A stretch of DNA of 64,000 nucleotides from an uncultured Gammaproteobacteria bacterium (GCA_964399675.1 CAYNRK010000006.1:1886-65885); one strand, 5' to 3'; numbered from the stretch's first letter, positions 5,210-50,647 are shown. A program made the numbers and translations. The notes: a model not told the origin generated them from the sequence alone.

Positions 5210-5238
5210 TTGACAAAAGTGCATTTTTGTGGTATCAT
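5210..5238 (+). promoter_or_regulatory. Sigma70-type promoter TTGACA-17-TATCAT for cassette 1
   Basis: TTGACA is at 5210-5215, the spacer is exactly 17 nt, and TATCAT is at 5233-5238. Confidence 0.5.
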
Positions 5239-5281
5239 TTTGCGTCATCCTGATTTCGATTGGGATACGCTCTGGGCCTTG

Positions 5282-5362
5282 GTCGAGCTCAACTCGACCT
5301 TGTAGCCCACTTTCCAACCGGGTCTTGTCGAGCTCAGCTCGACTCAGTGCCCCTTTCCAACA
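5282..5362 (+). promoter_or_regulatory. Two tandem copies of a hairpin-forming leader unit (GTCGAGCTCARCTCGAC + GCCCmCTTTCCAAC) in the 5' UTR of cassette 1
   Basis: Units are at 5282-5319 and 5327-5364. Each begins with a near-perfect palindrome and the second is followed by the SD AGGAGG at 5362-5367. Confidence 0.45.
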
Positions 5363-5372
5363 GGAGGAGACC

Positions 5373-6170
5373 ATGGGTCTTCGAACCAACGAGCGACTGG
5401 ATGACCTATGCACCACCGGGAGCTTGCTCTGGGAGCACGTCAAGGATCCGAGAGAGCCCGGACGAGACGGCCTGCTCAAGCGCGCGTTCCGTGTCGCGGA
5501 GTACAGGAACGTCGTGATCGAGCTGCCGGCCGGCGCCGTCGTCGAGCTGGTTGACACCGAGTTCGAGGGTGCCGGCACCTACTTCCACACCGAGGTCTTC
5601 GGAGTCAATCTGCACTTCCGGGACGGGCTCAAGCCCACGGCTGGTGAAGTCGTGATCTGCGACGTCCAGATCTACCTCGAGACCTGGGAGCCGGACTGGA
5701 GCGAGTTGAGCGAGGCCGAGCGGCGCAGGAGGCGTGGCTATCGGAACTACAAGTTCAAGCTCAACGCGACCCCGTGTGCCAAGTCGGACGCCCAGGCAAG
5801 GATGCGCTTGCACATCCGTGACGTGAACGCGGATGGCTACACGCGCATGCACAAGGACATCACAGGGGACGGAGAGCGCTTCGCGCACATGTCCCCGGAC
5901 TGGAAGCCGGACGGCTCCAAGCCCTGGGCCAGGAACCAGGACCTCCAGCTCCTGCAGATCCGGACCAAGGCCGGCAAGGGCGGTGGCAGTGGCAAGGCCG
6001 ACAAACCGGAGACCAAGGCCGGCAAGGGCAAGGGCAACGGCAAGGACAAGCCGCCGCAGAGGACCGAAGCCCAGGTCGTGCGTGAGGTCGACGGCGAGGC
6101 CAGGACGTCCATGCGCGACCTCTTGCGCAACGTCGTCCTTCCCACCACGACCACCCCCTCGGGCTCCTGA
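5373..6170 (+). CDS. Hypothetical protein, strongly GC-rich foreign gene (266 aa, Lys/Gly-rich C-terminal tail)
   Basis: ATG at 5373 lies 5 nt after AGGAGG. GC is about 65% by eye against an AT-rich host, with GC3-rich codons. The antisense ORFs here are high-GC artifacts. Confidence 0.6.
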   Translation: MGLRTNERLDDLCTTGSLLWEHVKDPREPGRDGLLKRAFRVAEYRNVVIELPAGAVVELVDTEFEGAGTYFHTEVFGVNLHFRDGLKPTAGEVVICDVQIYLETWEPDWSELSEAERRRRRGYRNYKFKLNATPCAKSDAQARMRLHIRDVNADGYTRMHKDITGDGERFAHMSPDWKPDGSKPWARNQDLQLLQIRTKAGKGGGSGKADKPETKAGKGKGNGKDKPPQRTEAQVVREVDGEARTSMRDLLRNVVLPTTTTPSGS

Positions 6171-6198
6171 GCCGCAAGGCTCTTCCCGCAAGGGATCT

Positions 6199-6247
6199 GA
6201 CGCCGCCAGCAACTCTCGCTGGCGGCGTCTTAATTTTCAAAAATTTT
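6199..6247 (+). terminator. Intrinsic terminator of cassette 1
   Basis: A perfect 12-bp stem GACGCCGCCAGC-aactctc-GCTGGCGGCGTC is followed by TTAATTTTCAAAAATTTT. Confidence 0.6.
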
Positions 6248-6252
6248 CCATC

Positions 6253-6445
6253 AACCTCCGACGAACCCCCAGGCCACCACCAACAGGTACGTTGTATAAT
6301 TTCGCCAGCACGAGCGAAGCGAGTCTGCCGAAATTATACAACGTGACTGTCCCCCATAATTCTCTACGAAGTCTGCCCGCAGCTCAGCTGCGGGCAGACT
6401 TTTCTAACCCCCCCCTTAATCCCCCCTTGAAAAGGGGGGAACTTC
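6253..6445. repeat. Family-B leader-like repeat, copy 1 (orphaned): CCTCCGACGAAC..., a long perfect hairpin ACGTTGTATAATTTCG/CGAAATTATACAACGT, and a G/C-rich distal hairpin
   Basis: It aligns with 44600-44775 and 48171-48400. On the minus strand it reads extended -10 (TTGTATAAT), hairpin, then GGAGG. Confidence 0.6.
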
Positions 6446-24108: not shown

Positions 24109-25210
24109 CCTTTACCAATCCTTCCAATCCATCCTTTTTTTCAGCTGAAATCCAAATGTGATCTTGATCAAACAATTTTTCATCAATTCTCTTCATGTCT
24201 TTTTTAGAAATCTGATCAATCTTATTTAAAACTAAAAGCTGTGGCTTTTCATTAATTCCCAACTTTTCCAAAATATCATCCACTACTTTCATTTGTTGAA
24301 ACATATGCTCGTCTGAGGCATCAACAACATGAAGCAAAATATTAGCCTCAACAGACTCGGACAAAGTTGATGCAAACGCTTTTAAAAGTTCAGGTGGAAG
24401 TTGTTTTATAAATCCAATTGTGTCTGAAACAAGACATGTTTTTCTTTTCCCTGGCAAAAATAATTCGCCAACGCGAGTATCAAGCGTTGCAAACAATTCA
24501 TCTGCCACGTATTCCTTGCGTCCAGTAAGTGAATTGAGCAAAGTTGTTTTTCCAGCATTGGTGTACCCAACAATTGCAACTGTTTTTAAATTTCTTCTTG
24601 TTCGAGAATCACGCTGCAGCTTTCGACCCTTTTCATACTTTTCCAATTTCTTTTTGATCTTTCGTTCTTTTTCTTTTAAGTGACGTTTCATTCGCTCAAC
24701 GTTTGTCTCACCAACCCCAACTGTTCCAATTCCACCGGCTTGACGCGAAAGCTCCATTCCCATACCAAAAATTCGTGGGCCCATGTGACGAATACTTGCA
24801 AGTTCAATCTCTAGCTTTGCTTCAGTGGTTTGTGCATGCTTTGCAAAAATTTTTAAAATAAGATCAATCCTGTCCCAAACCTGAATGTTAACTTTTCCAA
24901 GCACTTCTGAGAGCTCATAAACTTGCCTGGGTTTTAAACGATCATTAATAATCAAAAGCGACACCCCCTTTTCCTCTCCTTCTTCTGCAAGCTCGTGCAC
25001 CTTTCCGGTTCCAATAAATGTTCTCGGATGTGGTGCAAAACGTTTCTGCCATTTTTTAACAATCACAATTCCGCCGTAAGTATTTACAAGTTCTTCAAGT
25101 TCAAGCATCCGATCCATTGCATGCTCCTTTAACATGCGTGGATGAATGAGATCGATTAGAATGGCTTTTTGTTCTTTCTTCATGAAAGAATCATAGCATA
25201 AAAGAAACAT
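24089..25210 (-). CDS. hflX: GTPase HflX
   Basis: It has the G1 motif GYTNAGKTTLLN, G3 DTIGFI and G4 NKID, with an N-terminal HflX-type domain. An alternative start is MKKEQK at 25183. Confidence 0.7.
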   Translation of the reverse strand: MFLLCYDSFMKKEQKAILIDLIHPRMLKEHAMDRMLELEELVNTYGGIVIVKKWQKRFAPHPRTFIGTGKVHELAEEGEEKGVSLLIINDRLKPRQVYELSEVLGKVNIQVWDRIDLILKIFAKHAQTTEAKLEIELASIRHMGPRIFGMGMELSRQAGGIGTVGVGETNVERMKRHLKEKERKIKKKLEKYEKGRKLQRDSRTRRNLKTVAIVGYTNAGKTTLLNSLTGRKEYVADELFATLDTRVGELFLPGKRKTCLVSDTIGFIKQLPPELLKAFASTLSESVEANILLHVVDASDEHMFQQMKVVDDILEKLGINEKPQLLVLNKIDQISKKDMKRIDEKLFDQDHIWISAEKKDGLEGLVKEIENTL

Positions 25211-25263
25211 CCGCCGTCGCTCCGTTGGAGCTATGGCGGACAGGCCCGACCAGAAGGCCAGGC

Positions 25264-25638
25264 TTAGAAAGAGTCGGGGTTGGCGAGAATTCTGAGATTC
25301 CCCAAAAGAGGAGTATAGAGCTGTCGGACTGAATCTGGTTCCAAAGTCCGATGCACTTCACCTACGCACACCATCTCGAGAAGGTTCACTCTTCCCGAGC
25401 TGTCACGGACCAAGGTTGCTGCTGTGTCGTAGTCCTTGCGTTCCACAAGGTAGCGCAGTGCGTACCAGACAAAGCTGATCTCGCCAAGCAGCAGAACCCT
25501 GTGCGCAGGCTCGAGCCTTGGGGCTTTGCTTTTCGATGCGGCGAGAAGCGAGTGGTCGAGAACCTGTCCAGGTTCCTTTTCCAGGATTTGCATCACGTCT
25601 CGAAGGGTTTCTGCTGTGACCTTATCTTGATGACTCAT
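25264..25638 (-). CDS. Hypothetical protein (124 aa), GC-elevated cassette 3
   Basis: ATG at 25638 lies 5 nt after GGAG. It has its own promoter and terminator. GC is about 54% by eye against about 38% in the flanks. Confidence 0.5.
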   Translation of the reverse strand: MSHQDKVTAETLRDVMQILEKEPGQVLDHSLLAASKSKAPRLEPAHRVLLLGEISFVWYALRYLVERKDYDTAATLVRDSSGRVNLLEMVCVGEVHRTLEPDSVRQLYTPLLGNLRILANPDSF

Positions 25639-25668
25639 CACAACTCCGGTTGCATTCAACAAGAAAAG

Positions 25669-25697
25669 AGGTTACATGAAAAATCTCTTTGTGTCAA
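25669..25697 (-). promoter_or_regulatory. Promoter TTGACA-17-TAACCT (minus strand) for cassette 3
   Basis: The reverse complement of 25692-25697 is TTGACA. The spacer is exactly 17 nt and the -10 is TAACCT. Confidence 0.45.
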
Positions 25698-25699
25698 TC

Positions 25700-25732
25700 A
25701 AAAAACCCAGAACTTGAGTCTGGGCTTTTTTT
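25700..25732. terminator. Bidirectional intrinsic terminator downstream of hupB
   Basis: AAAAAACCCAGAACTTGAGTCTGGGCTTTTTTT. Confidence 0.6.
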
Positions 25733-29773: not shown

Positions 29774-30856
29774 CTATAACTCAACAAAGCTATTGTCTCC
29801 TAAAATGAGTCGATGGCCGGTTTTTGGATGACTCCGACGGTAATCAACCAATGAAGCGTTGAGCCCAATAAGACTATTAACTATCCGACGTGTTGTATCA
29901 ATAGTTGCGCCATCAAAAACAATGGAATGTTCAACTTCTGTGTGTGTGATTGTGACGTTGTTTCCAATGGCTGAGTAAGGGCCAATATAACTTGAAGTTA
30001 CAACACAATTCTCTCCAATTACAACCGGACCGCGAATAAGTGTGTCCGGACTTATTGTTGAACCTTTCCCAATGCTTACCAAACCTTGAACTTGCGCATT
30101 CTCTGGCACATTGCAATCAACACAAAAATCTTCACGACTCAGATCATCCATGATAAGTGCGTTCCCTTCAATCAGAGCGTCCGGTGTTCCAGTATCTTTC
30201 CACCAACCTGTAATCTCTTCATGTCCGGTTTTTCCATTTCGAATATACCAAGTGATAATATCAGTGATCTCGTACTCACCTCGTCCTGAGGGCTGTAATG
30301 TTTTAAAAGCTTCAAAAAACTTTTCATCAAATAAATAAATACCTGTTACAGCATACGGTGATGGGGGGTCTTTTGGTTTTTCAACAGTGCGTCTGAGTGT
30401 TCCGTCGTTATCAAACTCAGCAACTCCAAATCTTTGAGGGTCTTTTACATGGGACAGTGCAATCATGCAATCAAGATCCTCATTTTGAAATCGGTCAACA
30501 AATCGATTAATACTTCCGAGAATTATATTATCTCCCAAGAAAAACAAAAATCTTTCTCCTCGCAAATGTTCTTCAGCGTTTGCTACAACGTGTGCCAGAC
30601 CTTTGGCACCGCCGCGTTGTTCAACATATTTAATTTGAGCTCCAAATTCAGATCCGTTTCCAAACGCCTCGTACATCATTTCAATCTCACCTGGATTCAC
30701 ATTGATAATAAGATCTTTGATTCCAGCATTTGTAATTTTCTTAATGACATACCAAAGCATTGGCTTATTTGCCATTGGAATCAGGTGCTTGTTTCTAGTC
30801 CATGTGATGGGGCGAAGTCTTGTTGCATGCCCACCTGCTGCAATAAGTGCTTTCAT
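29774..30856 (-). CDS. rmlA: Glucose-1-phosphate thymidylyltransferase, long form (nucleotidyltransferase + left-handed beta-helix)
   Basis: It reads MKALIAAGGHATRLRPIT...KHLIP (the sugar-nucleotidyl transferase signature). It is 360 aa with C-terminal hexapeptide-like repeats. Confidence 0.7.
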   Translation of the reverse strand: MKALIAAGGHATRLRPITWTRNKHLIPMANKPMLWYVIKKITNAGIKDLIINVNPGEIEMMYEAFGNGSEFGAQIKYVEQRGGAKGLAHVVANAEEHLRGERFLFFLGDNIILGSINRFVDRFQNEDLDCMIALSHVKDPQRFGVAEFDNDGTLRRTVEKPKDPPSPYAVTGIYLFDEKFFEAFKTLQPSGRGEYEITDIITWYIRNGKTGHEEITGWWKDTGTPDALIEGNALIMDDLSREDFCVDCNVPENAQVQGLVSIGKGSTISPDTLIRGPVVIGENCVVTSSYIGPYSAIGNNVTITHTEVEHSIVFDGATIDTTRRIVNSLIGLNASLVDYRRSHPKTGHRLILGDNSFVEL

Positions 30857-30952
30857 AAAATATAAGTCAAAATTACATTGGCCACTTTACGCCTTTGAAA
30901 AACAAGCGTCAATAAGTTGCTTGACGAACTTTGGGGTTCATAAAAAGACACC

Positions 30953-30981
30953 TTGACGCAATCAAGAAAATAAATTACTCT
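30953..30981 (+). promoter_or_regulatory. Candidate promoter TTGACG-17-TACTCT for cassette 4
   Basis: The -35 is near-consensus and the spacer is 17 nt. A second TTGACG lies at 30921. Confidence 0.3.
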
Positions 30982-31019
30982 TCTTTTCTGACGGACTGGC
31001 TGTCACCACGGAGGAACTC

Positions 31020-31634
31020 ATGACTGTCTGGATCTCGCTCGAAGAAGCAAGAAAAAGGCTTGGCGATGACGTTGTCATCTGCCTGGAGCCCGAAGGAGTG
31101 CCTGACATCGAGGATGAAGGGAGACCTGAAAGAAAGAGCCTGGCTGACAAGCTTCCTGGGCTCTGGGTGTTCGATCCGAGAACGGGTCGGATCCAGCGCG
31201 GAGACGGCAAGTTCCACGCAGCCGGAGTGGTCAAGCACCCGGGCGGCTGGAACCTGGCCGCGGTCATCGAGGAGCCGAGCGTGGAACCGCCCGAAGAGGG
31301 TCCACACGTAGTCGGTCACGTGATCGTGGAGGTCAACCCGCGTGGGTTCGTGCGCAGACGGCTGGGCAAAGGCCTCAGCGGCGCGATCCACGAGCTCATG
31401 CCAAGCTCGATCAGCAAGGGCGAAGGTGCTGGTGAGGAGGAAGAACCGGTCGGCTACTTCGAGGCCAACTGCCAGCGCATCTGCGGCTCGATCGCGGTGT
31501 ATCTGCGTGAGGTCGACTTCCCGGACGACGAAGGCATGACTCCGGAGAGGTTCCGGAAGTGCTCCGAGGACGGACGTTCGCTCAGCGCGCTCGCAGTCGC
31601 TGGTCTGCTGCACGGGAGCCCTGTCACGGGCTAG
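31020..31634 (+). CDS. Hypothetical protein (204 aa), GC-rich cassette 4
   Basis: ATG lies 5 nt after GGAGGA. Codons are GC3-rich (about 65% GC by eye). The antisense 221-aa ORF is a GC artifact. Confidence 0.55.
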   Translation: MTVWISLEEARKRLGDDVVICLEPEGVPDIEDEGRPERKSLADKLPGLWVFDPRTGRIQRGDGKFHAAGVVKHPGGWNLAAVIEEPSVEPPEEGPHVVGHVIVEVNPRGFVRRRLGKGLSGAIHELMPSSISKGEGAGEEEEPVGYFEANCQRICGSIAVYLREVDFPDDEGMTPERFRKCSEDGRSLSALAVAGLLHGSPVTG

Positions 31635-31663
31635 AAACACTCGACACTCAACATCTCTCTCCT

Positions 31664-31691
31664 ACGGGCTTCCCCAGCCCGTTTTCATTTT
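31664..31691 (+). terminator. Intrinsic terminator of cassette 4
   Basis: ACGGGC-ttcccca-GCCCGT is followed by TTTCATTTT. Confidence 0.5.
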
Positions 31692-31815
31692 GAAAATTGA
31701 ACCAGGTGCATAAGCATCAAAAATAACTGTCACCAAATAGATCCATAATTTACATTACAAAAGAAGCTGGCGAGCAAAGAATTCTGTGCACAAACAAAAA
31801 CAACCCTTTCGGAAC

Positions 31816-31837
31816 AATCCTAACGATCGTTAGGATT
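31816..31837. promoter_or_regulatory. Perfect 22-bp palindrome AATCCTAACGATCGTTAGGATT abutting the stop codon of the wHTH/Cas2-like gene
   Basis: It is exactly self-complementary. A near-identical copy lies at the gene's start (32365-32386). Confidence 0.6.
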
Positions 31838-31838
31838 G

Positions 31839-32357
31839 TTAGAGAATTTTTCCCTCCACCACCTTCGCCCATTCTCCAATTCCAATCTCATCAAGGAGCT
31901 GCCTCATCTCATCGGTAACAGCCTTTCTTGTTCCCCAAATACTTTTTTGAATTTGTACAAAACCAGCTTTCTTTAAATATTTACGAAAAAGATCACGAGT
32001 TTTTCGAACATCTTCTGGAATGTCAAAGATGATCAGACAGTATTCATCATCAAAGAGTTCGTTTTGTTCTAAAAGAATTCTGTCTTTCAATGACTGTACT
32101 AGACCCTTTTTTGTTAATTGAAACTCAATACGGTCGCCTTTTTCTAGTATTTCAATTAGACCCCTTTCAATGAGTTGATACTCAAGCTCGAGATGATTTA
32201 TCTTCGCTTTTCTTTTCCTATAAAAATCAAATTCCCGAGCCATTGCTCTGACACCAGTACCTGAACACGGGTAGGAATAAGGATGCGATTTTTCCAATCT
32301 TTGTATTCTGTTAGTCAACTTTTGAAGTTGATATCGAGTATTTGGAATTTTAGACAT
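31839..32357 (-). CDS. Putative transcriptional regulator: N-terminal winged-helix-like region plus a C-terminal Cas2/VapD-like domain (paralog of 49589-50134)
   Basis: The ATG start is at 32357 (MSKIPNT). The C-terminal pattern YCLIIFDIPEDVRKTRDLFRKYLKKAGFVQIQKSIWGT resembles the Cas2 beta1-alpha1 core. Its composition is AT-rich like the host. Cognate palindromes lie at both ends. Confidence 0.45.
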   Translation of the reverse strand: MSKIPNTRYQLQKLTNRIQRLEKSHPYSYPCSGTGVRAMAREFDFYRKRKAKINHLELEYQLIERGLIEILEKGDRIEFQLTKKGLVQSLKDRILLEQNELFDDEYCLIIFDIPEDVRKTRDLFRKYLKKAGFVQIQKSIWGTRKAVTDEMRQLLDEIGIGEWAKVVEGKIL

Positions 32358-32364
32358 AAGCAAA

Positions 32365-32386
32365 AATCCTAACGATCGTTATGATT
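32365..32386. promoter_or_regulatory. Second copy of the 22-bp palindrome (AATCCTAACGATCGTTATGATT), 8 bp upstream of the regulator start codon
   Basis: It differs by one base from 31816-31837. It overlaps the expected RBS/promoter and is a likely autoregulatory operator. Confidence 0.55.
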
Positions 32387-32530
32387 TCTCTGAAACAGTG
32401 TGGGAAGAGCTAAACGAAAAACTCCCCACCACTACTAATGGAAGGGAGTATTTATTATAATTACATATTAGCAATTTTTTTTGAATCTGTCAATGTGTAT
32501 GACAACTAATTTTCATAAAAAAACAAAATT

Positions 32531-32567
32531 CAGATAACAAGAAAACCACCAGGACAATACCTTGGTG
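32531..32567 (-). terminator. Intrinsic terminator of cassette 5 (minus strand)
   Basis: The stem CCACCAAGG/CCTGGTGG is followed by TTTTCTTGTT on the minus strand. Confidence 0.45.
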
Positions 32568-32581
32568 GCCGTACGTCTTGC

Positions 32582-33307
32582 TCAGACGAGCAAGGACATG
32601 ACTGCGCGCATGTGACCGCTGAGAAAGCCAGCTGCCCTTGCTTCGCGCAGGACACTGCGAGTGATCCAGGCGAAGTTCTCGGGCTGACCGGTCTTTTTGA
32701 CTTCTTGGTTGACCAGACCCTCATCAGCCACACGAATGTGTCCGTACTTGTTGACCTTTTCGAAGTGTCGACCCCCGTCTTCGACTGCGTCCTCCCAGGC
32801 AATATGCGACGCCCATCCCACCTTCTGTGGAGATAGAACCAGGTCAGCAAACGGAACAGGCTTGATGGGCCGACCTCCACGATCCAGCTCCCCTTGCAGT
32901 GCCTTGCGATGATGATCCAGATTGGATTGTGAGAACTGCACTGGTGGGGCAACAAGGACTCGTGTGTTGCGACCTTGGGGCACTTCGATTCCAATGTTGC
33001 CTGGCTCAGCAAGCATGCGCACAAGGATCCTGTTGGGCTCGTGCACGATCAAGGCAACGAACCCCTTTCCAACCGTGAAAAGCATGGGCTGCTTCCAGCT
33101 CGCAACCTCTCGACCGGCCGCACCGGCGATCCTTACACCACGCACGCTGTAGAAGCGTCCATCAGGACGCATGAGCCCGGCGTCGGAAACCTTCCAGTCT
33201 GGCCTGAGCCACGAAATGGAGCATTCTTCCGACGCCATTGCCAGCGCATCCGCACGCTTATGAGCGAAAGTGAAAAAAGACGGCATATTGGTAAAGGTCT
33301 TAACCAT
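32582..33307 (-). CDS. Hypothetical protein (241 aa), GC-rich cassette 5
   Basis: ATG at 33307 lies 8 nt after AAGGAGA. GC is about 62% by eye. It is inserted within the dTDP-sugar gene cluster. Confidence 0.55.
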   Translation of the reverse strand: MVKTFTNMPSFFTFAHKRADALAMASEECSISWLRPDWKVSDAGLMRPDGRFYSVRGVRIAGAAGREVASWKQPMLFTVGKGFVALIVHEPNRILVRMLAEPGNIGIEVPQGRNTRVLVAPPVQFSQSNLDHHRKALQGELDRGGRPIKPVPFADLVLSPQKVGWASHIAWEDAVEDGGRHFEKVNKYGHIRVADEGLVNQEVKKTGQPENFAWITRSVLREARAAGFLSGHMRAVMSLLV

Positions 33308-33333
33308 GATCACTGTCTCCTTGCTGAAAAGAA

Positions 33334-33362
33334 AAATTAGCAGTCTTTATCAAAATTGTCAA
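33334..33362 (-). promoter_or_regulatory. Promoter TTGACA-17-TAATTT (minus strand) for cassette 5
   Basis: The reverse complement of 33357-33362 is TTGACA. The spacer is 17 nt and the -10 TAATTT is identical to the -10 at 23491. Confidence 0.5.
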
Positions 33363-33363
33363 T

Positions 33364-33391
33364 CAAAAAAGAGCCGTTCGGCTCTTTTTTA
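33364..33391. terminator. Bidirectional intrinsic terminator after rmlD
   Basis: AAAAAAGAGCCGTTCGGCTCTTTTTT. Confidence 0.6.
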
Positions 33392-33401
33392 TTTATTTAT
33401 T

Positions 33402-34259
33402 TTATTCTCCCCTTTTTGCTTTTGCGTACTTTTCTAATGTGTCTCTTAATGCCTCTTGTACAGATCTCATTGCTATTCCAAATTCTCCCAATCGCGTGCT
33501 TTTCAAAAAGTTGTTTGACCGTCCTTTCTTTGCCAACCCTTGTTTTACTAAATCATCATTTGAAATCCATTCACACGAATGATTCTGATCCACTAATTCC
33601 TTATACAATCCAAGCAGCTCTCTGTGTCTCATGGTTCCTGGATTAGTAACATGGAAAATTCCTTCGGCTCGTTTGCTAAGAAGCTGATAAAAAACATCAA
33701 CCATATCATCAACAATTGAAACTGAATTTTCAACATCAATTACTTTTTCAAAACCCGCGAGCTTATCAATCAAATTTCCTGAAGATGGCTTCCAATCTAT
33801 TGGCATACGAATTCGTCCGATCCCAACATTAGGAAGTGTTGAAAGAACCAAGTCAGCTGCAAACTTTGCTCGTGAATAAACAGGACGCGGGTTTCCAAAA
33901 TCATCCTCGCGCCATGCATTATCTTCGTGCGGCGAGTGTCCATAAAAAATACATCCGGAACCAATGTGCAGCAAATACTTCCCTGTCTCTGCACACGCTT
34001 GCGCAAGCATAATAGGAAGCACAGTGTTTCCTTCAATCGTTTCCAGTTGATGATCTTCACACCAGTCCACGTTTGGTTTTCCTTTTACACCAGCCGCATT
34101 AAAAACAACATCCGGCTGCGTTCTGTTAATTTCATCAATTGCGTCCTGCACGCTCTTTACGTTCACGGGCGAAATAAAAGCTTCATCCCCCCAAGCCTCC
34201 TTACAACGATTACCAATGTAACCGTTTCCAAAAATCAAAATTTTCATAGTTTTTGTCAT
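33402..34259 (-). CDS. rmlD: dTDP-4-dehydrorhamnose reductase-like NAD(P)-dependent reductase
   Basis: The start is ATG at 34259 (MTKTMKILIFG) or 34247. It has an N-terminal Rossmann fold and the YSRAK (YxxxK) motif. It is adjacent to rmlB. The ORF-track N-terminal extension reads through repeat A2. Confidence 0.6.
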   Translation of the reverse strand: MTKTMKILIFGNGYIGNRCKEAWGDEAFISPVNVKSVQDAIDEINRTQPDVVFNAAGVKGKPNVDWCEDHQLETIEGNTVLPIMLAQACAETGKYLLHIGSGCIFYGHSPHEDNAWREDDFGNPRPVYSRAKFAADLVLSTLPNVGIGRIRMPIDWKPSSGNLIDKLAGFEKVIDVENSVSIVDDMVDVFYQLLSKRAEGIFHVTNPGTMRHRELLGLYKELVDQNHSCEWISNDDLVKQGLAKKGRSNNFLKSTRLGEFGIAMRSVQEALRDTLEKYAKAKRGE

Positions 34260-34353: not shown

Positions 34354-35358
34354 TTATCTTAAATTATATTGCTGTTTGTAATAATCTTTATAAGCACCTG
34401 AACGGCATCTATCAATCCACTCTTGATTGTCTTTTAACCATTGCACTGTTTGACCCAATCCTTCATCAAAATTTACTTTTGGTTCCCAGCCAAGTTCTGT
34501 TCTTAACTTCTGACTGTTTAATGCATATCGTCGATCATGCCCGGCCCGATCTTTTACATATTCAATATGAGATTCATCTCGTCCTGTAAGTCCAATCATC
34601 TTTCTTACAATATCCAGGTTTGGCACGCGATACCCTGTTCCAATGTTATAAGCTTCGCCAAGGTTGCCTTTTTGCGCAATCAAGTCAATTGCCCTGCAAT
34701 GATCTTCTGTAAAAATCCATTCACGGATTTGCATTCCATCTCCATAAACAGGAACGATTTTACCATTAAATAAATTGGATGTAAACAATGGGATCAGCTT
34801 TTCAGGAAATTGATATGGGCCATAAAAATTAACAGAGTGAGTGATAATAACCGGAGTTCCATAAGTTATTGCATAAGCGTGGCACATATGATCAGCCGCA
34901 GCTTTTGAAGCCGAGTATGGGCTTCTTGGCTCAAATGGCGAACCCTCTTCTGACTCCCCTTCCATAACAGCGCCATAAACTTCGTCTGTTGAAATGTGAA
35001 CCATACGAGGAATGTTGTGTTTGCGAACACCCTCAAGCAATGTGTAAACGCCATAGATATTTGTATCAACAAATGCACGAGGTTCTAAAATTGATCGATC
35101 AACATGAGTCTCAGCAGCATAGTTGATAATCAGATCAACGCCTTTTGATAAAACCTGGTCCACATCATTTTCGTTTGCAATATCACCTTTTACAAATTGA
35201 TAACGCTTGTCGTTTTCAATCTCTTTGAGATTTTCAAGATTTCCAGCGTAAGTTAGTTTGTCAAAGTTAACAACTTCAACATCGTCATATTTTTTTAACA
35301 AATAGTGGATCATGTTTGTTCCCATGAATCCAGCTCCTCCGGTGATCAATATTTTCAT
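34354..35358 (-). CDS. rmlB: dTDP-glucose 4,6-dehydratase
   Basis: It reads MKILITGGAGFMGTN..., has the YSASKAAADH catalytic YxxxK and is 334 aa. Confidence 0.8.
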   Translation of the reverse strand: MKILITGGAGFMGTNMIHYLLKKYDDVEVVNFDKLTYAGNLENLKEIENDKRYQFVKGDIANENDVDQVLSKGVDLIINYAAETHVDRSILEPRAFVDTNIYGVYTLLEGVRKHNIPRMVHISTDEVYGAVMEGESEEGSPFEPRSPYSASKAAADHMCHAYAITYGTPVIITHSVNFYGPYQFPEKLIPLFTSNLFNGKIVPVYGDGMQIREWIFTEDHCRAIDLIAQKGNLGEAYNIGTGYRVPNLDIVRKMIGLTGRDESHIEYVKDRAGHDRRYALNSQKLRTELGWEPKVNFDEGLGQTVQWLKDNQEWIDRCRSGAYKDYYKQQYNLR

Positions 35359-35894
35359 ATGTTCAAATGTTTTTTAACCAAATACCAGGATGAGATCACT
35401 GTTCCGTCCCAAATATCTCCACTCTGAATTGCTTCATCGATTTGTTCTGCTGTCATTTCAATAATATCTATCTCTTCATTGTCTTCTAATTTTTGTTTTG
35501 CTGGCTCAAGATCTGTTGCCAAATAAACTATTCCCCGTTCTTTTGAAATAGATGGAGCTGATGCTTTCCACCCGATTCTAACGATTTTATTTGGCTTATA
35601 CCCAGCCTCTTCAATGCACTCTCTTACAAATGCCTCATCTGGAGTTTCGTCTTTTTCAATCCCACCAGCTGGAATAGCAACAGAAATCTTGTCAAACAAA
35701 TATCTATATTCTTTAAGCATTATAAAGTTGCCGTTTTCTTTTTGAAGAAAACCTTCAACATACTCTGTGCCGTATGCATTTGCATGATAGTAATATGTTC
35801 GTTTCTGACCATCAACCTCATAATCATCAACTAAAAATCGTATGTGATCGTTTTCAATCACTGGTTCTGTTTTAATTGTTTTCCATTTTTTCAT
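35355..35894 (-). CDS. NUDIX hydrolase (ADP-sugar/NDP-sugar pyrophosphatase-like)
   Basis: The Nudix box is GGIEKDETPDEAFVRECIEEAGY. The start is ATG at 35894. The earlier ATG at 35909 lies inside repeat A3. Confidence 0.6.
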   Translation of the reverse strand: MKKWKTIKTEPVIENDHIRFLVDDYEVDGQKRTYYYHANAYGTEYVEGFLQKENGNFIMLKEYRYLFDKISVAIPAGGIEKDETPDEAFVRECIEEAGYKPNKIVRIGWKASAPSISKERGIVYLATDLEPAKQKLEDNEEIDIIEMTAEQIDEAIQSGDIWDGTVISSWYLVKKHLNI

Positions 35895-35903
35895 ATTCAC
35901 TTC

Positions 35904-35994
35904 TGTCATCCCGAGCGACCCCGGCGCAGCCGGGGGAGCCGAAGGATCTCGAATTTGAGATTTCTCCGCTCGCTAGTGCTCGGTCGAAATGACA
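35904..35994. repeat. Family-A palindromic repeat, copy 3 (overlaps the last codons of the HIT gene)
   Basis: The ends are TGTCATCCCGAGCGA ... GCTCGGTCGAAATGACA, in reverse-complement orientation relative to copy 1. Confidence 0.6.
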
Positions 35995-36389
35995 GATCTA
36001 ATCTGATTAGCGATTTTTTCAAGCTCCTCTGGATCCCCTTGTTTTTGCGGCCACATTTTCAATCCATCATCTTTGAATCTAGGAACAATGTGAACGTGTG
36101 TGTGAAAAACCGATTGCCCAGCTGCCTCGCCAATGTTTGAAGTAACATTTAGTCCGTCAGCATTTGTGATTTTTTGAATTATTGGACCCAACTTTCTAAC
36201 AGTTGCAAAAACATGGTTCATGTCCTCTTCTGAAGATTCAAACATATTTGCTTTTTCGTTTTTTGGAACAACAAGCACATGACCATTGTGCACTGGAAAC
36301 GCATCCAAAAACGCAACCGTGTACTCGTCCTCATAAATGATCTGTGCGGGAATTTCTTTATTTATAATTTTTGTGAAAATAGATGACAT
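35973..36389 (-). CDS. HIT-family hydrolase (histidine triad protein)
   Basis: The HTHVHIVPR histidine triad is present. Confidence 0.7.
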   Translation of the reverse strand: MSSIFTKIINKEIPAQIIYEDEYTVAFLDAFPVHNGHVLVVPKNEKANMFESSEEDMNHVFATVRKLGPIIQKITNADGLNVTSNIGEAAGQSVFHTHVHIVPRFKDDGLKMWPQKQGDPEELEKIANQIRSVISTEH

Positions 36390-36398
36390 ATTTATATT

Positions 36399-36516
36399 TG
36401 GATCGCTTCTGGATCGCTACCCGGTAGTCTGGATCGCTACCCGGTAGTCTGGATCGCTACCCGGTAGCGGTTTAAGCCTTTAAAAATGGGCCCAGACCGC
36501 TATCGGGTAGCGATTC
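36399..36516. repeat. Three perfect tandem copies of the 20-bp unit TGGATCGCTACCCGGTAGTC (the last copy ends in CG) plus one inverted partner (CTATCGGGTAGCGATT); each unit contains the near-palindrome GCTACCCGGTAGC
   Basis: I read the direct repeats at 36410-36469, the partial unit at 36400 and the inverted copy at 36500-36516. The array lies in the HIT gene's upstream region. Confidence 0.6.
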
Positions 36517-42587: not shown

Positions 42588-42636
42588 CAAGACTATTTTC
42601 CGACGATCGTCGGAAAATAGTCTTGTTTTTGTTTTG
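42588..42636 (+). terminator. Intrinsic terminator with a perfect 17-bp stem (CAAGACTATTTTCCGACGA/TCGTCGGAAAATAGTCTTG)
   Basis: It is followed by TTTTTGTTTTG. Confidence 0.65.
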
Positions 42637-42671
42637 CAAAAGCTCGGCCACGTCGCTCAAGAGCGACGTGG

Positions 42672-42700
42672 TTGACAATTTGAGGTTTTCAAGACATAAT
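42672..42700 (+). promoter_or_regulatory. Promoter TTGACA-17-CATAAT for cassette 6, preceded by the hairpin CCACGTCGCTC-aaga-GCGACGTGG
   Basis: The -35 is a perfect consensus, the spacer is 17 nt, and the hairpin abuts the -35. Confidence 0.45.
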
Positions 42701-42745
42701 CAATCGTCACAAAAACGTGGCAAAAGTGAGAAAGGAGGGCTTGTT

Positions 42746-43345
42746 GTGAGCCAGTTCTTTTCAGTGGCCGCGAACGTTTTGATCGTCGTGGTCATGGTGA
42801 TCTACTTCAAACAGGTTGTGAAAGGGGTTTCAGTCCCGAACCCATCGGCCTGGCTTATCTGGATCATCATTGGGCTCATGAATATGGTGAGCTACTTCCT
42901 GGTCGTGCGCGGTGATCTGTGGCAATCGTTGATCACCATTGTTACCTTCGCAGGTTTCATATTCATCTTTGTTTATGCCACAGTGAAAGGAAAATTCGCC
43001 GGCTTTAGCAAAGCGGACATGTTCTATTTCATCCCGGCTCTTGTGGTCGGAGTGATATGGCAGACAACCGGCAATGCAGATCTTGCAAACATCAGTTTGC
43101 AAATCGTGTACCTCCTCTCTTACCTCCCGATCGTACACGGACTACTCAGTCATAGACTCCGCGAAAAGTCACTGCCCTGGAATCTGGCGTCGATATCCTA
43201 CTGCCTGATGATTCTGGCCATTGTGACCGCTGACTCCTGGCGCTGGATTGCGCTCGTCCATCCAATTGCCAATGGAATCGTCGGAAACGGCAGCGTTATC
43301 CTGGCCATCCATCTGCAAGCACGAAAAACTCGGAAGGCAAAGTAA
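42746..43345 (+). CDS. Hypothetical 6-TM membrane protein (199 aa), GC-elevated cassette 6
   Basis: The GTG start lies 7 nt after AAGGAGG. GC is about 52% by eye. Confidence 0.45.
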   Translation: MSQFFSVAANVLIVVVMVIYFKQVVKGVSVPNPSAWLIWIIIGLMNMVSYFLVVRGDLWQSLITIVTFAGFIFIFVYATVKGKFAGFSKADMFYFIPALVVGVIWQTTGNADLANISLQIVYLLSYLPIVHGLLSHRLREKSLPWNLASISYCLMILAIVTADSWRWIALVHPIANGIVGNGSVILAIHLQARKTRKAK

Positions 43346-47493: not shown

Positions 47494-48159
47494 TCACATC
47501 ATGATTCTACGCAAGACTAATTTTACAAGAGTTTTAATTCCAACAAAAAATCCCTGACCTTTTGAAAGTGAGTACTCAGTGTAGATTGCTTTTATTGGAA
47601 CTTCTTTTAGAACAAGTTTGTTGCGCTTAGTTTCAGCAATAATTTCTGAGGAAACTTCCATGCGATTTGTTTGCAGCTCAATCTTTGAAAGCGCAAACTC
47701 TGTAAACGCACGATATCCGGATTGACTATCAGACACCCAGGCACCAAACAAAACAAAAGTTGTTAAGTTCCCAAGAATCTGAGCAACCTGTCTGTACCAT
47801 GGCATTCCAACTCTGGTTTTCATTCTTGTTCCAATCACAACATCCGCCCCTTTTTCTATTGCATGTACAAACTTGTTTATCTCTGATGGATCGTGTTGGC
47901 CATCAGCATCCAATGTGACAACAACCTCAGCATTTCGTTTTTTTGCCATTTCAAAACCAGTACCAATCGCTGCACCCAACCCCCTATTTATCACATGACT
48001 AACAACAACAGCACCTTGCACACGAGCAATCTGCGCAGTCCGATCAGTTGACCCATCATCCACCACCACAACCTCATCAACAAAATCCCGCGTTCCTTTC
48101 AGAACCTCGGCAATCGTTGTTTCTTCATTGTAAGCAGGAATAACTGCAATAATTTTCAT
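47494..48159 (-). CDS. GT2 polyprenyl-phosphate glycosyltransferase (DPM1/GtrB-like)
   Basis: It reads MKIIAVIPAYNEE...VVVVDDGSTDRT and is 221 aa. Confidence 0.65.
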   Translation of the reverse strand: MKIIAVIPAYNEETTIAEVLKGTRDFVDEVVVVDDGSTDRTAQIARVQGAVVVSHVINRGLGAAIGTGFEMAKKRNAEVVVTLDADGQHDPSEINKFVHAIEKGADVVIGTRMKTRVGMPWYRQVAQILGNLTTFVLFGAWVSDSQSGYRAFTEFALSKIELQTNRMEVSSEIIAETKRNKLVLKEVPIKAIYTEYSLSKGQGFFVGIKTLVKLVLRRIMM

Positions 48160-48170
48160 AGATTGATCTT

Positions 48171-48400
48171 AATCCTCCGACGAACTCTCAGTATCTCCAC
48201 AACAGGTACGTTGTATATAATTTCGCCAGCACGGAACAAAGTGAGTACTGCCGAAATTATATACAACGTGACTGTCCCCCATAATTCTTTACGAAGATTG
48301 CTTCGCTTCGCTCGCAATGACACAAGGTGCAGGACACGAGGGAATTCTTTACGGAGATTGCTTCGCCCCGTTTCACGAAAGGGGGCTCGCAACGACGCAT
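48171..48400. repeat. Family-B leader-like repeat, copy 3 (with an internal duplication), immediately upstream of the GT2 start
   Basis: The perfect hairpin arms are ACGTTGTATATAATTTCG / CGAAATTATATACAACGT. The 2-nt TA insertion is present in both arms. Confidence 0.6.
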
Positions 48401-48458: not shown

Positions 48459-49475
48459 TTAAATCGACGTCAGCAGAATCTTATTTGCTTTCATATATTC
48501 AATAGTCTTCTTCAACCCATCTTCAAGCCTCACAAGCGGGAACCACCCCAAATCTTTGGCCTTGTTAATCCTTGGAAGCGACAGCTCTGATAAAAACTCA
48601 AAATCCTCACCCTTAACAATCTTTGACGAGCTTGTGGTCATTTGAATTATCATCTGAGCAACTTCATTAAGAGACAGGTCAATATCACTTCCTAAGTTTA
48701 CTGGGCCTGGATATTCCAGGGCGTTCATAAGCCGTGCAATTCCATCAACAATATCACTTACATAAGCGAGTGATGTACGGAAATCTTTTCCACCATTTAG
48801 AACCAGATCCTTTCCATCCAGGGCGTTTAAAATAAAATCCGGAATCATATGACCATCAAAAAGAGGCATGCGCGGTCCATAGGTTCTAAAGATGCGAGCT
48901 ATACGAATATCAATTGCGTGCACTTGTCTGTATGTCTCAAACATTGTTTCAGAAAATCTCTTGCCTTCGTCATAACACGCTCGAACTGACAAGTGATCCA
49001 CGATCCCTTTTGCATCTTCTTGAACATGTGCTTTTGTATCTGTTCGTGCTCCATAAACAACAGAACTTGATGCAAGCAAAATCTTTGCGCGATACTTTTT
49101 TGCAAGCTCTAAAACATGATAATTCCCAAGAGAGTTTGAAAGTAATGTTTGAACTTTAAACTCATTAAACTTTTTAATTGATGTTGGGCATGCAAAATGA
49201 TAGATCTCTTGAATACCTTGAAACGGAAGTTTGAATGCAGCAAGTTCTGAATGGCTTTCAAGATCAAACACCTCATTAACATCTAATCTAATGAATCGAA
49301 AGTCTGGGTGTTGTAAAAGACCACTGATATTACTGTGATCGCTGGTTGAAAAATTATCAACGCAAATCACACGATGACCCTCTTTGAGCAAATGCTCACA
49401 CAAATGGGATCCAATAAAACCAGCCCCACCGGTAACAAGTATGTTATTTTTTTCAAATGTAAGTGCTTGTGGCAT
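48459..49475 (-). CDS. NAD-dependent epimerase/dehydratase (UDP-glucuronate decarboxylase/UXS-like)
   Basis: It has VTGGAGFIGSHLCEHL and the YDEGKR (YxxxK) motif, and is 338 aa. Confidence 0.6.
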   Translation of the reverse strand: MPQALTFEKNNILVTGGAGFIGSHLCEHLLKEGHRVICVDNFSTSDHSNISGLLQHPDFRFIRLDVNEVFDLESHSELAAFKLPFQGIQEIYHFACPTSIKKFNEFKVQTLLSNSLGNYHVLELAKKYRAKILLASSSVVYGARTDTKAHVQEDAKGIVDHLSVRACYDEGKRFSETMFETYRQVHAIDIRIARIFRTYGPRMPLFDGHMIPDFILNALDGKDLVLNGGKDFRTSLAYVSDIVDGIARLMNALEYPGPVNLGSDIDLSLNEVAQMIIQMTTSSSKIVKGEDFEFLSELSLPRINKAKDLGWFPLVRLEDGLKKTIEYMKANKILLTSI

Positions 49476-49564
49476 ATGTTCAATTATAGCAGGGGCTGGG
49501 CACTGGGCGCTAGGGGCTGGGCACCCGGACGAGCGTCCGTTACCTCACACACTCCTTACGGCGT

Positions 49565-49596
49565 ACATTATTTCCGCATATGAGAATTTTATGTCC
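49565..49596. promoter_or_regulatory. Degenerate copy of the 30-bp palindrome ACATTATTTYC-n8-GAAAATAATGT at the 3' end of the second wHTH/Cas2-like gene
   Basis: It reads ACATTATTTCCGCATATGAGAATTTTATGTCC. Confidence 0.4.
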
Positions 49597-50134
49597 ATTC
49601 ATTTCCAACAATGACTTTCACCCACTTGTCTATTCCAAGCAATTGAGAAATCGCAACTAGCTCATCTGCAACATCTTTATTCGTTGACAAAACACTTAAC
49701 TGAAATTTTTTAAATCCCACTGAGTAAAGAAAGTGACGCCAGCTGTCTCGAGCCTTGGATGCACCGTTTGGGAAATCAAACATTACAAAACAAACCTGAT
49801 CATTTGGAAGCTCGATATCTTTTGTTCGAACTAGTTGTTTAAGATGTTGAACCAATGCATGCGAGGAAATCTCCACCAACATCTTGTTGCCAACTTTCTT
49901 TGACTCAATCCATTTTTTCTCTTGAAGATCTTTTATTACCCGTCTTTTTTCACGGTCGGCCTGAATCTGTTCCCACACTTCATCAGGCAACCTTGTCGAA
50001 TGCATGTATCGAGGACCAGCATAAGGTGGAACAAAAGTAACTACTTTTCCCATTAAATCTAAACCTCCAAGTAGTAACTCGATAACTTCTTCCTTTACTG
50101 TTTTCGATTCATTATCAATCCTAGGTCTTGCCAT
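49589..50134 (-). CDS. Putative regulator, wHTH + Cas2/VapD-like C-terminal domain (paralog of 31839-32357)
   Basis: Its C-terminal VCFVMFDFPNGASKARDSWRHFLYSVGFKKFQLSVL parallels LIIFDIPEDVRKTRDLFRKYLKKAGFVQIQKSIW in the paralog. Confidence 0.45.
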   Translation of the reverse strand: MARPRIDNESKTVKEEVIELLLGGLDLMGKVVTFVPPYAGPRYMHSTRLPDEVWEQIQADREKRRVIKDLQEKKWIESKKVGNKMLVEISSHALVQHLKQLVRTKDIELPNDQVCFVMFDFPNGASKARDSWRHFLYSVGFKKFQLSVLSTNKDVADELVAISQLLGIDKWVKVIVGNEWT

Positions 50135-50138
50135 ATGT

Positions 50139-50169
50139 ACATTATTTTCTCATATGGGAAAATAATGTA
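50139..50169. promoter_or_regulatory. 30-bp palindrome ACATTATTTTC-tcatatgg-GAAAATAATGT between the regulator start and the NUDIX gene
   Basis: The 11-bp arms are perfect. It lies 5 bp upstream of the regulator ATG. Confidence 0.55.
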
Positions 50170-50185
50170 CAAGAGTTTTTGATCA

Positions 50186-50647
50186 TTATTTCAGATATCC
50201 CAACTTTTTAAAAAGTTTAATTGATGGCGGAGTCAATTTTAATTTTTTAAGCTCATCGATTTGAGTCCAGCTATGAGTTACCAGATCGTCTTCTAGTTTA
50301 ATCTCAATCTCGTCTGCATTTTTGTCATTAATCACGATCTTGAATACATTAAAAACCATCTCACAGACCACATCCTCACCAGTACCCTTAAGGGTCTTTT
50401 CACATTCACCTCGACCAGAATCATCGACTAATTCAATCTCATACAACGAGATATCGATTCCGGTTTCTTCTTTTACTTCACGAATCAAAGCAGACTCTTT
50501 GTCTTCACCTTGATCAATACCTCCACCGGGGATATGCCAACTATCAGAATAGACACCTCCTTTATTAGGATCTTTCATTCCCTGAAACAGCTTTCCGTCT
50601 TTTGAAAAAATAAGTGCTGCTACAATATCTCTTTTAATTCGTTTCAT
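50186..50647 (-). CDS. NUDIX hydrolase
   Basis: The Nudix box is GGGIDQGEDKESALIREVKEETGI. Confidence 0.65.
   Translation of the reverse strand: MKRIKRDIVAALIFSKDGKLFQGMKDPNKGGVYSDSWHIPGGGIDQGEDKESALIREVKEETGIDISLYEIELVDDSGRGECEKTLKGTGEDVVCEMVFNVFKIVINDKNADEIEIKLEDDLVTHSWTQIDELKKLKLTPPSIKLFKKLGYLK

Follow-up and report, generated by a model that had tools for sequence, protein, structure and literature searches.

Within a 64,000-nucleotide stretch of DNA from an uncultured Gammaproteobacteria bacterium (GCA_964399675.1 CAYNRK010000006.1:1886-65885; hereafter the window, ~40% GC), positions 30860-33400 hold three self-contained genes between rmlA and an rmlD-like gene of a deoxythymidine-diphosphate (dTDP)-rhamnose operon. 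We propose, with a probability of roughly 55%, that this segment of 2.5 kb is one form taken by a regulated accessory branch module, composed of three autonomous units, that varies between lineages in the conserved 6-deoxyhexose operon of Uhrbacteria. The operon is treated here as that of an uncultured Uhrbacteria genome. Its 241-amino-acid (aa) enzyme, most likely a dimer, would act on the dTDP-4-keto-6-deoxyglucose supplied by RmlA and RmlB and would open a branch leading away from rhamnose to a 2-deoxy sugar or one with another modification. The 204-aa protein would be a second enzyme acting on nucleoside-diphosphate (NDP) sugars, or else a partner or pseudo-subunit analogous to the non-catalytic second domain of EvaA. 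The PaaX_M/Cas2-like repressor would bind both palindromes that bracket its gene, autoregulate and gate transcription across the island, and the surface glycan may be altered as a result.

Bacteria of the candidate phyla radiation (CPR), Uhrbacteria included, are uncultured episymbionts in which attachment to hosts and to phages probably depends on surface glycans; to our knowledge, almost nothing is known about how these glycans vary. The locus offers a testable handle on such variation, combining a three-enzyme rhamnose pathway with a built-in variable slot. The half-size 2,3-dehydratase may resemble the ancestral, pre-duplication form of the EvaA-type enzymes; further parts are a new Nudix-fold family and a recurring operator-gene-operator regulator design with predicted operators. 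Finally, a gene-specific, long-kept excess of GC at third codon positions (GC3), in genes that co-diverge with AT-rich flanks, is contrary to amelioration theory for foreign genes and is worth explaining, by selection or by biased gene conversion.

Three genes split a rhamnose operon

An earlier sequence-only reading of the window had described a mosaic insert splitting the dTDP-rhamnose operon, with two GC-rich genes on either side of an AT-rich regulator. That description was largely borne out, and the gene coordinates and strands that it gave all held:

29774..30856, minus strand: rmlA, long form (glucose-1-phosphate thymidylyltransferase); conserved flank; TIGR01208 388.6 bits against a 320-bit cut-off, PF00483 E 1.4e-51
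31020..31634, plus strand: 204-aa GC-rich gene; GC 63%, GC3 0.74; Nudix-fold family
31839..32357, minus strand: 172-aa PaaX_M/Cas2-like winged-helix regulator; GC 36%
32582..33307, minus strand: 241-aa GC-rich gene; GC 57%, GC3 0.61-0.62; single-domain EvaA-type homologue
33402..34247, minus strand: 'rmlD', an NRS/ER-type bifunctional 3,5-epimerase/4-reductase, 281 aa; conserved flank
34354-35358, minus strand: RmlB 4,6-dehydratase; Pfam match; conserved upstream gene
35355-35909, minus strand: canonical Nudix hydrolase; Pfam match; conserved upstream gene
35973-36389, minus strand: HIT protein; Pfam match; conserved upstream gene

Against a background of 35-42% GC, the two GC-rich genes stand out as blocks of 62-66% GC (31050-31649) and 55-58% GC (32550-33299). 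Both are extreme outliers from the median GC3 of 0.31 over 57 non-overlapping open reading frames (ORFs) of the window (robust z 7.6 for the 241-aa gene) and lie far above the neighbouring genes (GC3 0.26-0.36). The segment is not an assembly artefact, since an identical locus lies on a second scaffold (L005; loci are cited by L numbers) and the proteins recur on independently assembled contigs from several sources, the exact 204-aa protein on seven and the exact regulator protein on nine. We rejected the possibility that the GC-rich blocks are structured RNAs: an Rfam search of the window returned no structured RNA, and each block codes for a conserved protein family with a confident model. 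Long antisense ORFs over the GC-rich genes (for example, 30975-31640) were taken as a by-product of GC-rich codon usage, because the GC3 signal and the homology sit in the sense frames.

The flanks are conserved: the rmlA product is 76-83% identical in 30 Uhrbacteria loci, and the HIT/Nudix/RmlB synteny upstream of the island is kept in L001, L004 and most of L006-L045. The label rmlD given in the sequence-only reading had to be revised. The product of this gene (true start MKILIFGNG, with orthologues beginning MKILIFG) matches the bifunctional NRS/ER structure PDB 4qqr at E 3e-43 and 7jid at E 5e-25, the classical RmlD 1kbz only at E 9e-5, and reaches 59.7 bits against TIGR01214, for which the cut-off is 224; it is not a classical RmlD and resembles instead the NRS/ER-type bifunctional dTDP/UDP-4-keto-6-deoxyglucose 3,5-epimerase/4-reductases. 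Gene calls and Pfam searches gave no RmlC in the operon, so that the separate RmlC and RmlD of a classical RmlABCD set are missing, and with a bifunctional epimerase/reductase no rmlC is needed. Judged by homology, the flanks encode a complete three-enzyme rhamnose pathway comprising RmlA, RmlB and the bifunctional 3,5-epimerase/4-reductase.

A single-domain 2,3-dehydratase homologue

The guess that the 241-aa product might be a Nudix-fold, NDP-hexose 2,3-dehydratase-like protein, offered as speculation in the sequence-only reading, turned out well. The protein matches Pfam PF03559 (Hexose_dehydrat) over profile positions 9-203 of 203 (67.4 bits, cut-off 25; E 1.5e-18), and a profile of 22 homologues matches both halves of EvaA (PDB 4j7g), each separately, at E 2.4e-19. 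Foldseek comparison of the AlphaFold 2 model (predicted local distance difference test, pLDDT, 81) returned EvaA first and NDP-sugar Nudix hydrolases next. The glutamates of the EPGN and EDGGRF motifs are invariant in the 22 homologues and align to EvaA E139 and E190; mutating E139 or E190 abolishes EvaA activity (PMC8987622). All 32 members of the detectable family are single-domain proteins of 225-276 aa; those that are named come from Candidatus Uhrbacteria, and a motif search of the family found no Nudix box. In every locus that could be read, the gene lies inside the RmlA/RmlB operon, which encodes the dTDP-4-keto-6-deoxyglucose enzymes. By profile and residue conservation, the 241-aa protein is a single-domain homologue of the EvaA-type NDP-hexose 2,3-dehydratases in which both catalytic glutamates are kept.

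Distant single-domain relatives of the protein (22-25% identical) also occur on marine viral contigs from IMG/VR (L046-L052), where their genes are AT-rich (host-like) and lie in sugar clusters; single-domain 2,3-dehydratase homologues are therefore found in phage sugar clusters as well. On these contigs, for example L047 (4154-6143), a 245-aa Hexose_dehydrat homologue lies between a short short-chain dehydrogenase/reductase (SDR) and an RmlC-like epimerase, and radical S-adenosylmethionine and glycosyltransferase genes adjoin.

The junction is a variable slot

We compared 36 loci fetched through RmlA and nine fetched through the cassette proteins, almost all of them from Uhrbacteria. The conserved order is HIT-(Nudix)-RmlB-epimerase/reductase, a gap, then RmlA-PEGA-S41. 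The gap measures 8-111 bp in seven loci (L015, L016, L018, L021, L025, L028 and L036) and 0.8-4.5 kb, with differing gene content, in about 20 others; in all, 40 Uhrbacteria loci other than that of the window were surveyed for these two states. This synteny of rmlA, rmlD and rmlB, with near-empty and filled junctions among Uhrbacteria, upholds the earlier suggestion of an insertion hotspot or accessory island within a sugar-nucleotide operon. Filled gaps contain the dehydratase homologue (nine loci), the 204-aa family (six loci, plus a distant member in L006) and PaaX-like genes, as well as several NUDIX-domain families and FdtA/cupin, PP2C, inositol-phosphatase and HD proteins. Most of the content belongs to the Nudix superfamily, with PF00293 in four of the cassette proteins tested. 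In L042 the RmlB and reductase genes have a 204-aa homologue between them, beside an FdtA-like gene. Every dehydratase or 204-aa homologue with readable context is inside an rml operon (L001/L017, L004/L013, L008, L012, L026, L030, L040 and L042-L045). Variable content and exclusive rml linkage together therefore make the junction a true variable slot, with cargo functionally tied to nucleotide sugars.

Turnover at this slot can be seen between close relatives. L017 and L045 share 98% identity in RmlA and yet are set apart by a 1.6-kb block that carries the regulator and the 204-aa gene; the boundary of the block directly follows the dehydratase terminator and abuts a type-B PaaX element (see below). 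L017 has all three genes of the window, yet the cassettes are never host-like in composition, and they are without housekeeping homologues, which leaves the proposal of an island standing. One expectation failed: a comparison of 30860-30960 with 33365-33400 gave no direct repeats marking insertion junctions and nothing beyond AT-rich chance matches, namely an inverted one of 12 nt and a 34-nt, 71% AT-rich one. Literature searches turned up no account of the locus, nor any of GC-rich cassettes in CPR.

The island has diverged with its flanks

The main rival to an accessory branch module is that the GC-rich cassettes are recent foreign DNA, imported singly from a high-GC donor and un-ameliorated in composition. 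In favour of this view, the composition boundaries are sharp, each gene has its own promoter, ribosome-binding site and terminator, and the junction content differs even between genomes with 98% identical RmlA. Other GC-rich single-gene units in the same genome look recently inserted (for example, 25264-25638), and some Uhrbacteria have 59-62% GC, so that a GC-rich gene pool feeding these genomes is possible. We nevertheless hold recent import to be unlikely. Where matches are named, both families are confined to CPR among 5.8 billion proteins, and orthologues occupy the same site down to 55% RmlA identity, with a divergence that tracks the flanks. As for high-GC Uhrbacteria, L018 has an empty junction, and in L031 and L038 no rmlD-like gene was detected. 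The region has two marks of a mobile island, an empty site in relatives and atypical composition, and lacks the direct repeats; we found no integrase, transposase, tRNA gene or target-site duplication in it, all three of its genes having other assignments, and no tRNA gene in the 64-kb window.

Cassette identity follows flank identity (Spearman coefficient 0.72 in the dehydratase, 0.88 in the 204-aa family). RmlA and dehydratase identities are 98% and 79% for L017/L045, 96% and 63% for L017/L012, and 92% and 69% for L044/L026; pairs near 80% RmlA identity retain 45-50% in the dehydratase. In the closest pair (L017 vs L045) the flanks show a synonymous divergence (dS) of 0.62-0.65 and a nonsynonymous divergence (dN) of 0.013-0.033, and the dehydratase a dS of 0.88 and a dN of 0.13 (omega ~0.15). 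The cassette dS is only modestly above that of the flanks, contrary to what recent import would give. These values fit a dehydratase that shares the history of the flanks, with a protein rate 4-10 times higher and net purifying selection. The island is long-resident and co-diverges with its flanks, and recent acquisition is disfavoured.

The GC excess belongs to particular genes. Cassette genes of the Nudix superfamily exceed mean flank GC3 in 29/29 occurrences, by 0.09-0.46 (~18 genomes, host GC3 0.30-0.65), and PaaX-like genes lie at or below host GC3 (-0.16 to +0.01). We polarised third-position changes by parsimony in four trios, comparing cassettes with flanks:

Trio 1: cassette equilibrium GC3 0.44, current 0.48; flank equilibrium 0.36
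Trio 2: cassette equilibrium GC3 0.69, current 0.70; flank equilibrium 0.52
Trio 3: cassette equilibrium GC3 0.84, current 0.82; flank equilibrium 0.62
Trio 4: cassette equilibrium GC3 0.71, current 0.82; flank equilibrium 0.49

GC-to-AT (strong-to-weak) rates were below those of the flanks in three of the four trios (p 0.04, 0.0016 and 0.00012); AT-to-GC rates were above them in all four, significantly in no single trio. An equilibrium GC3 near the current value, with strong-to-weak rates that are not raised, again speaks against recent import, and is suggestive of a GC bias that is maintained rather than of decaying foreign composition. Such a bias might stem from selection acting on codons or on mRNA, or from GC-biased conversion if the locus recombines.

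An unannotated Nudix-fold family

The 204-aa protein returned no match in Pfam (PF00293 included), NCBIfam, PDB sequences, PADLOC or PHROG. It has the Nudix alpha/beta/alpha sandwich fold, so that comparison by homology and structure, suggested in the sequence-only reading for both cassette proteins, gave EvaA as the best match of one and a Nudix fold for the other. The Nudix box GX5EX7REUXEEXGU, in strict or loose form, was present in 0/26 family members, and control Nudix proteins were detected. The family has few members: a word search gave 28 proteins, and a set of 1.84 billion representatives gave 84 clusters. No distant member that was scanned matches a Nudix or dehydratase Pfam family, and the viral contigs hold no relative of the 204-aa family. 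Profile-profile comparison gave a weak link to the dehydratase family (E 1.8e-4 over 102 columns, probability 49%). The 204-aa protein thus belongs to an unannotated, CPR-only Nudix-fold family that is remotely related to the 2,3-dehydratase domain. We also considered whether the 241-aa and 204-aa proteins form an obligate split EvaA (heterodimer), an idea weakened by their frequent separate occurrence.

A regulator between two palindromes

The 172-aa protein contains the PaaX middle domain (PF20803, PaaX_M; E 2e-14, 53.9 bits, cut-off 24). Its match to Cas2 PF09827 is marginal (E 3.9e-5, 24.2 bits vs a 23.8 cut-off) and covers the first 40-45 profile positions only, and PADLOC likewise gave partial Cas2 matches only. 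The window contains no array of clustered regularly interspaced short palindromic repeats (CRISPR), and the full Cas2 combination of domain, cas1 and array is not present. Against TIGR02277, the full three-domain PaaX of ~300 aa, the protein scores 23.7 bits (cut-off 264.55) and is without the C-terminal domain.

Two copies of a perfect 22-bp palindrome had been reported around this gene. Two copies do flank the AT-rich regulator; only copy 1 is perfect, and copy 2, AATCCTAACGATCGTTATGATT, agrees at 21/22. The 22-nt palindrome occurs in two copies in the whole 64 kb, compared with 0.00 expected by chance. The sites are:

31813..31840: palindrome copy 1, a perfect 28 bp, AACAATCCTAACGATCGTTAGGATTGTT; overlaps the regulator stop codon; likely an operator and/or terminator hairpin
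32364..32387: palindrome copy 2, with one G-to-T mismatch; 7 nt upstream of the regulator ATG; contains the likely Shine-Dalgarno AGGA; likely an autoregulatory operator

This arrangement recurs. Ten PaaX-like genes were examined by comparing the 285 nt at their two ends, and seven of the ten had a gene-specific repeat of 11-26 nt at both ends (E 1e-11 to 0.015); among the seven are the regulator described here and the genes of L010, L012, L017 and L043. The closest regulator homologue (49% identical), in L010, has a bracketing repeat with a CGACGGCCGTCG core, and L017 has a perfect 36-bp palindrome whose CGATCG core is the same as that of the site in the window. The type-B PaaX-like genes of L012, L017 and L043 have in common a bracketing element, TGTTGACATCTTTTC...TGTCAACA, that contains -35-like hexamers. 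This element is ~38 bp long, with arms TGTTGACA(T/A)(C/T)TTTTC and TGTCAACA and -35-like hexamers on both strands, and its copies lie at L017 6404-6445 and 7036-7075, L012 7159-7184 and 7810-7835, and L043 7647-7685 and 8202-8240. On the simplest reading of this architecture, a dimeric repressor would bind an operator at each end of its own gene; the repeats might, less probably, be element ends. We rejected the idea that the palindromes make the regulator gene invertible, its orientation differing from that in L001/L017, because the oppositely oriented genes are of another subtype, at 30-32% identity compared with the 49% of the L010 gene, which is co-oriented, and have different repeats.

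A second locus in the window is built along similar lines; its genes, all of them minus-strand, are a canonical Nudix gene (50186-50647), a PaaX-like gene (49589-50134), an NDP-sugar SDR (48459-49475) and a glycosyltransferase family 2 (GT2) gene (47494-48159). The PaaX-like gene, 34% identical to the first regulator and among the seven bracketed ones, has one copy of its repeat, a palindrome whose arms are 14 nt long, at 50136-50171 and another, degenerate one at 49563-49586.

The company that these regulators keep bears on a second rival, in which the Nudix-fold proteins are NDP-sugar sensors or house-cleaning hydrolases and form an NrtR-like two-part system with the PaaX-like protein. Neither family has a Nudix box, a PaaX-like gene adjoins the 3' end of the 204-aa gene in four of the six loci that have it, and PaaX-like genes adjoin Nudix genes elsewhere, including the second locus (49589-50647). 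We regard this as improbable, about as much so as recent import: both EvaA catalytic glutamates are invariant in the 241-aa family, cassettes occur without any PaaX-like gene in L013, L026, L030, L040, L042, L044 and L045, and the protein evolution is fast, which is not usual in a sensor dedicated to one fixed metabolite.

A third rival sees the island as a site of conflict or defence, or else as a mobile module of PaaX/Cas2-like type, in which Nudix effectors serve in phage/host conflict and the bracketed gene creates the hotspot. It would account for fast protein evolution, for the high presence/absence turnover, for regulator-flanking repeats that are inverted or palindromic like transposable-element ends, for the L017/L045 indel boundary abutting one such repeat and for the Cas2-like domain, but is the least probable of these alternatives given that PADLOC and PHROG searches of the cassette proteins gave no match, that the window has neither CRISPR array nor tRNA, that there is no identical multi-copy element (the two PaaX-like genes of the window are 34% identical, with different repeats), that TTGACA is found within the type-B repeats, which overlap promoter positions in the manner of operators, and that an omega of 0.15 means overall purifying selection.

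Transcription signals

Signals in and around the island are listed below; the function of the promoter-like sites is predicted.

30884..30912, minus strand: promoter-like site of rmlA, TTGACG-17-TAAAGT; scan 9/12
30953..30981, plus strand: weak promoter candidate of the 204-aa gene, TTGACG-17-TACTCT (TTGACG 30953-30958, TACTCT 30976-30981); below scan threshold
31664..31692, plus strand: intrinsic terminator of the 204-aa gene; 7-bp stem with 5 GC pairs, then a T run
32175-32204, plus strand: weak internal promoter-like site; scan 9/12
32465..32493, minus strand: regulator promoter-like site, TTGACA-17-TAATAT with extended TG; scan 10/12, the best of the region
32546..32568, minus strand: terminator-like hairpin 3' of the 241-aa gene, CCACCAAGG/CCTGGTGG then TTTTCTTGTT; read from the sequence
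33334..33362, minus strand: weak promoter candidate of the 241-aa gene, TTGACA-17-TAATTT (TTGACA 33362-33357, TAATTT 33339-33334); below scan threshold
33365..33390, both strands: bidirectional terminator hairpin, AAAAAAGAGCCG TTCG CGGCTCTTTTTT; 11-bp stem; ends the HIT-Nudix-RmlB-epimerase/reductase transcript

The promoter hexamers claimed earlier for the two cassette genes both exist, and their rating did not carry over: the -10 boxes match TATAAT at 3/6 positions only and fall below the scan threshold. Promoter-like sites that pass the scan number three, against 2.5 expected in shuffles, which is no excess. The 204-aa gene has a GGAGG ribosome-binding site upstream of its ATG at 31020, and the start of the 241-aa gene, ATG 33307, is set by an AAGGAG site (33322-33317) and by N-terminal homology. 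The 32546..32568 hairpin, which is followed by a T run, was not called by the scanner because of a bulge in its stem. From these signals each of the three genes looks like its own transcription unit, and rmlA would be a separate unit at this locus. At the operon head, three perfect tandem copies of the 20-mer TCTGGATCGCTACCCGGTAG (36408-36467) lie directly upstream of the HIT gene start (36389) and may be a regulatory site array.

Weighing the branch module

Several points weigh against an accessory branch module as we have drawn it. Neither the island nor the operon has a 3-ketoreductase that could act on the unstable 3,4-diketo product, the only reductase there being the NRS/ER-type SDR, or any other enzyme completing a 2,6-dideoxysugar pathway. 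The 241-aa protein has one domain and all characterised 2,3-dehydratases have two. The two cassette genes are together in three of the ~12 loci having either and so are not obligate partners, both have weak promoter matches, and the argument for operator binding by the regulator is one of architecture. The trio substitution analysis relies on parsimony, its counts are small and come from diverged sequences, and two of the trios (3 and 4) have genomes in common; co-divergence, for its part, could also come from preferential exchange between close relatives.

A wider possibility, doubtful in our view, is that the junction is an undescribed kind of dedicated diversification locus. Fast-evolving Nudix-fold genes, both single-domain 2,3-dehydratase homologues and the unannotated family, would be swapped there; their GC would be held high by a gene-specific force (codon or mRNA selection, or biased gene conversion); and repeat-bracketed PaaX/Cas2-like proteins would control or mobilise them, varying nucleotide-sugar output and the surface glycan.

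Other GC-rich units in the window

Further GC-rich genes occur elsewhere in the window. A single-gene unit at 5211-6230 (62-64% GC, GC3 ~0.83) contains a coding sequence (5373-6170) for 265 aa with a Lys/Gly-rich tail, a TTGACA-17-TATCAT promoter (5211-5245) and a terminator (6199-6229). Its 5' leader has two tandem hairpins, GTCGAGCTCA(A/G)CTCGAC, each then followed by CC(A/C)CTTTCCAAC. The 265-aa product has no Pfam or PHROG match and no homologue in any fetched locus. Between the genes for HU and HflX (window 25187-25700) lies a 124-aa GC-rich gene, on the minus strand at 25264-25638, that has a TTGACA-17-TAACCT site to itself; the HU/HflX junction is 567 bp here against 32-160 bp in most related loci, so that the gene looks like a genome-specific insertion. 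No homologue of it was found in the other loci. At 42623-43345, beside glycosyltransferase genes, a 240-aa membrane-protein ORF has a GC3 of 0.61 against the median of 0.31 and an overall GC of 49%. A 31-nt element, TATACAACGTGACTGTCCCCCATAATTCTCT, occurs at 6335-6365 and 48260-48290 with one mismatch, in hairpin-rich, GC-richer intergenic DNA, one copy after the GC-rich cassette of 5211-6230 and the other after the GT2 gene; it may be an intergenic repeat like repetitive extragenic palindromes or miniature inverted-repeat transposable elements (REP/MITE-like).

Comparison with known systems

The closest parallels to the 241-aa protein are the EvaA/TylX3/OleV-type enzymes (PF03559; PDB 4j7g), with which it shares the domain family, the Nudix-like fold and both glutamates essential in EvaA; its gene, moreover, adjoins those of RmlA and RmlB, the makers of their known substrate. 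It differs in having one domain (241 aa) rather than two fused domains (~470 aa), in being without a partner 3-ketoreductase, in residing in a CPR rhamnose operon rather than an actinomycete antibiotic cluster, and in being encoded by a fast-evolving, compositionally anomalous gene.

Like the PaaX repressor of phenylacetate catabolism (TIGR02277; PF20803), the regulator combines a winged helix with a Cas2-like middle domain and has palindromic DNA sites beside its own gene. It is about half as long, lacks the C-terminal domain, falls far below the family cut-off, is linked to nucleotide-sugar and Nudix genes, and has one site at each end of its gene. The Nudix-related regulators NrtR, AraR and NadQ similarly couple a Nudix-fold ligand module to a winged-helix DNA binder, as the structural matches and gene adjacency would suggest here; in our case the two are separate genes, the DNA binder is of the PaaX_M type and the coupling is suggested by adjacency only.

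As in phage morons and integron cassettes, each GC-rich gene lies between conserved genes with its own promoter-like site, ribosome-binding site and terminator. In contrast to those systems, there is no attC-like site, integrase, prophage context or PHROG match here, and the cassette genes are vertically co-inherited with their flanks. The polysaccharide or O-antigen (rfb) variable regions resemble the locus in that conserved nucleotide-sugar genes flank strain-variable, sugar-related genes of atypical composition, with empty and filled states among relatives. Unlike in those regions, the variable part lies inside the rml genes and spans only 1-4 kb, it is dominated by Nudix-superfamily proteins instead of glycosyltransferases, flippases and polymerases, and it is GC-richer rather than AT-richer than the genome, an excess that has been kept over long divergence.

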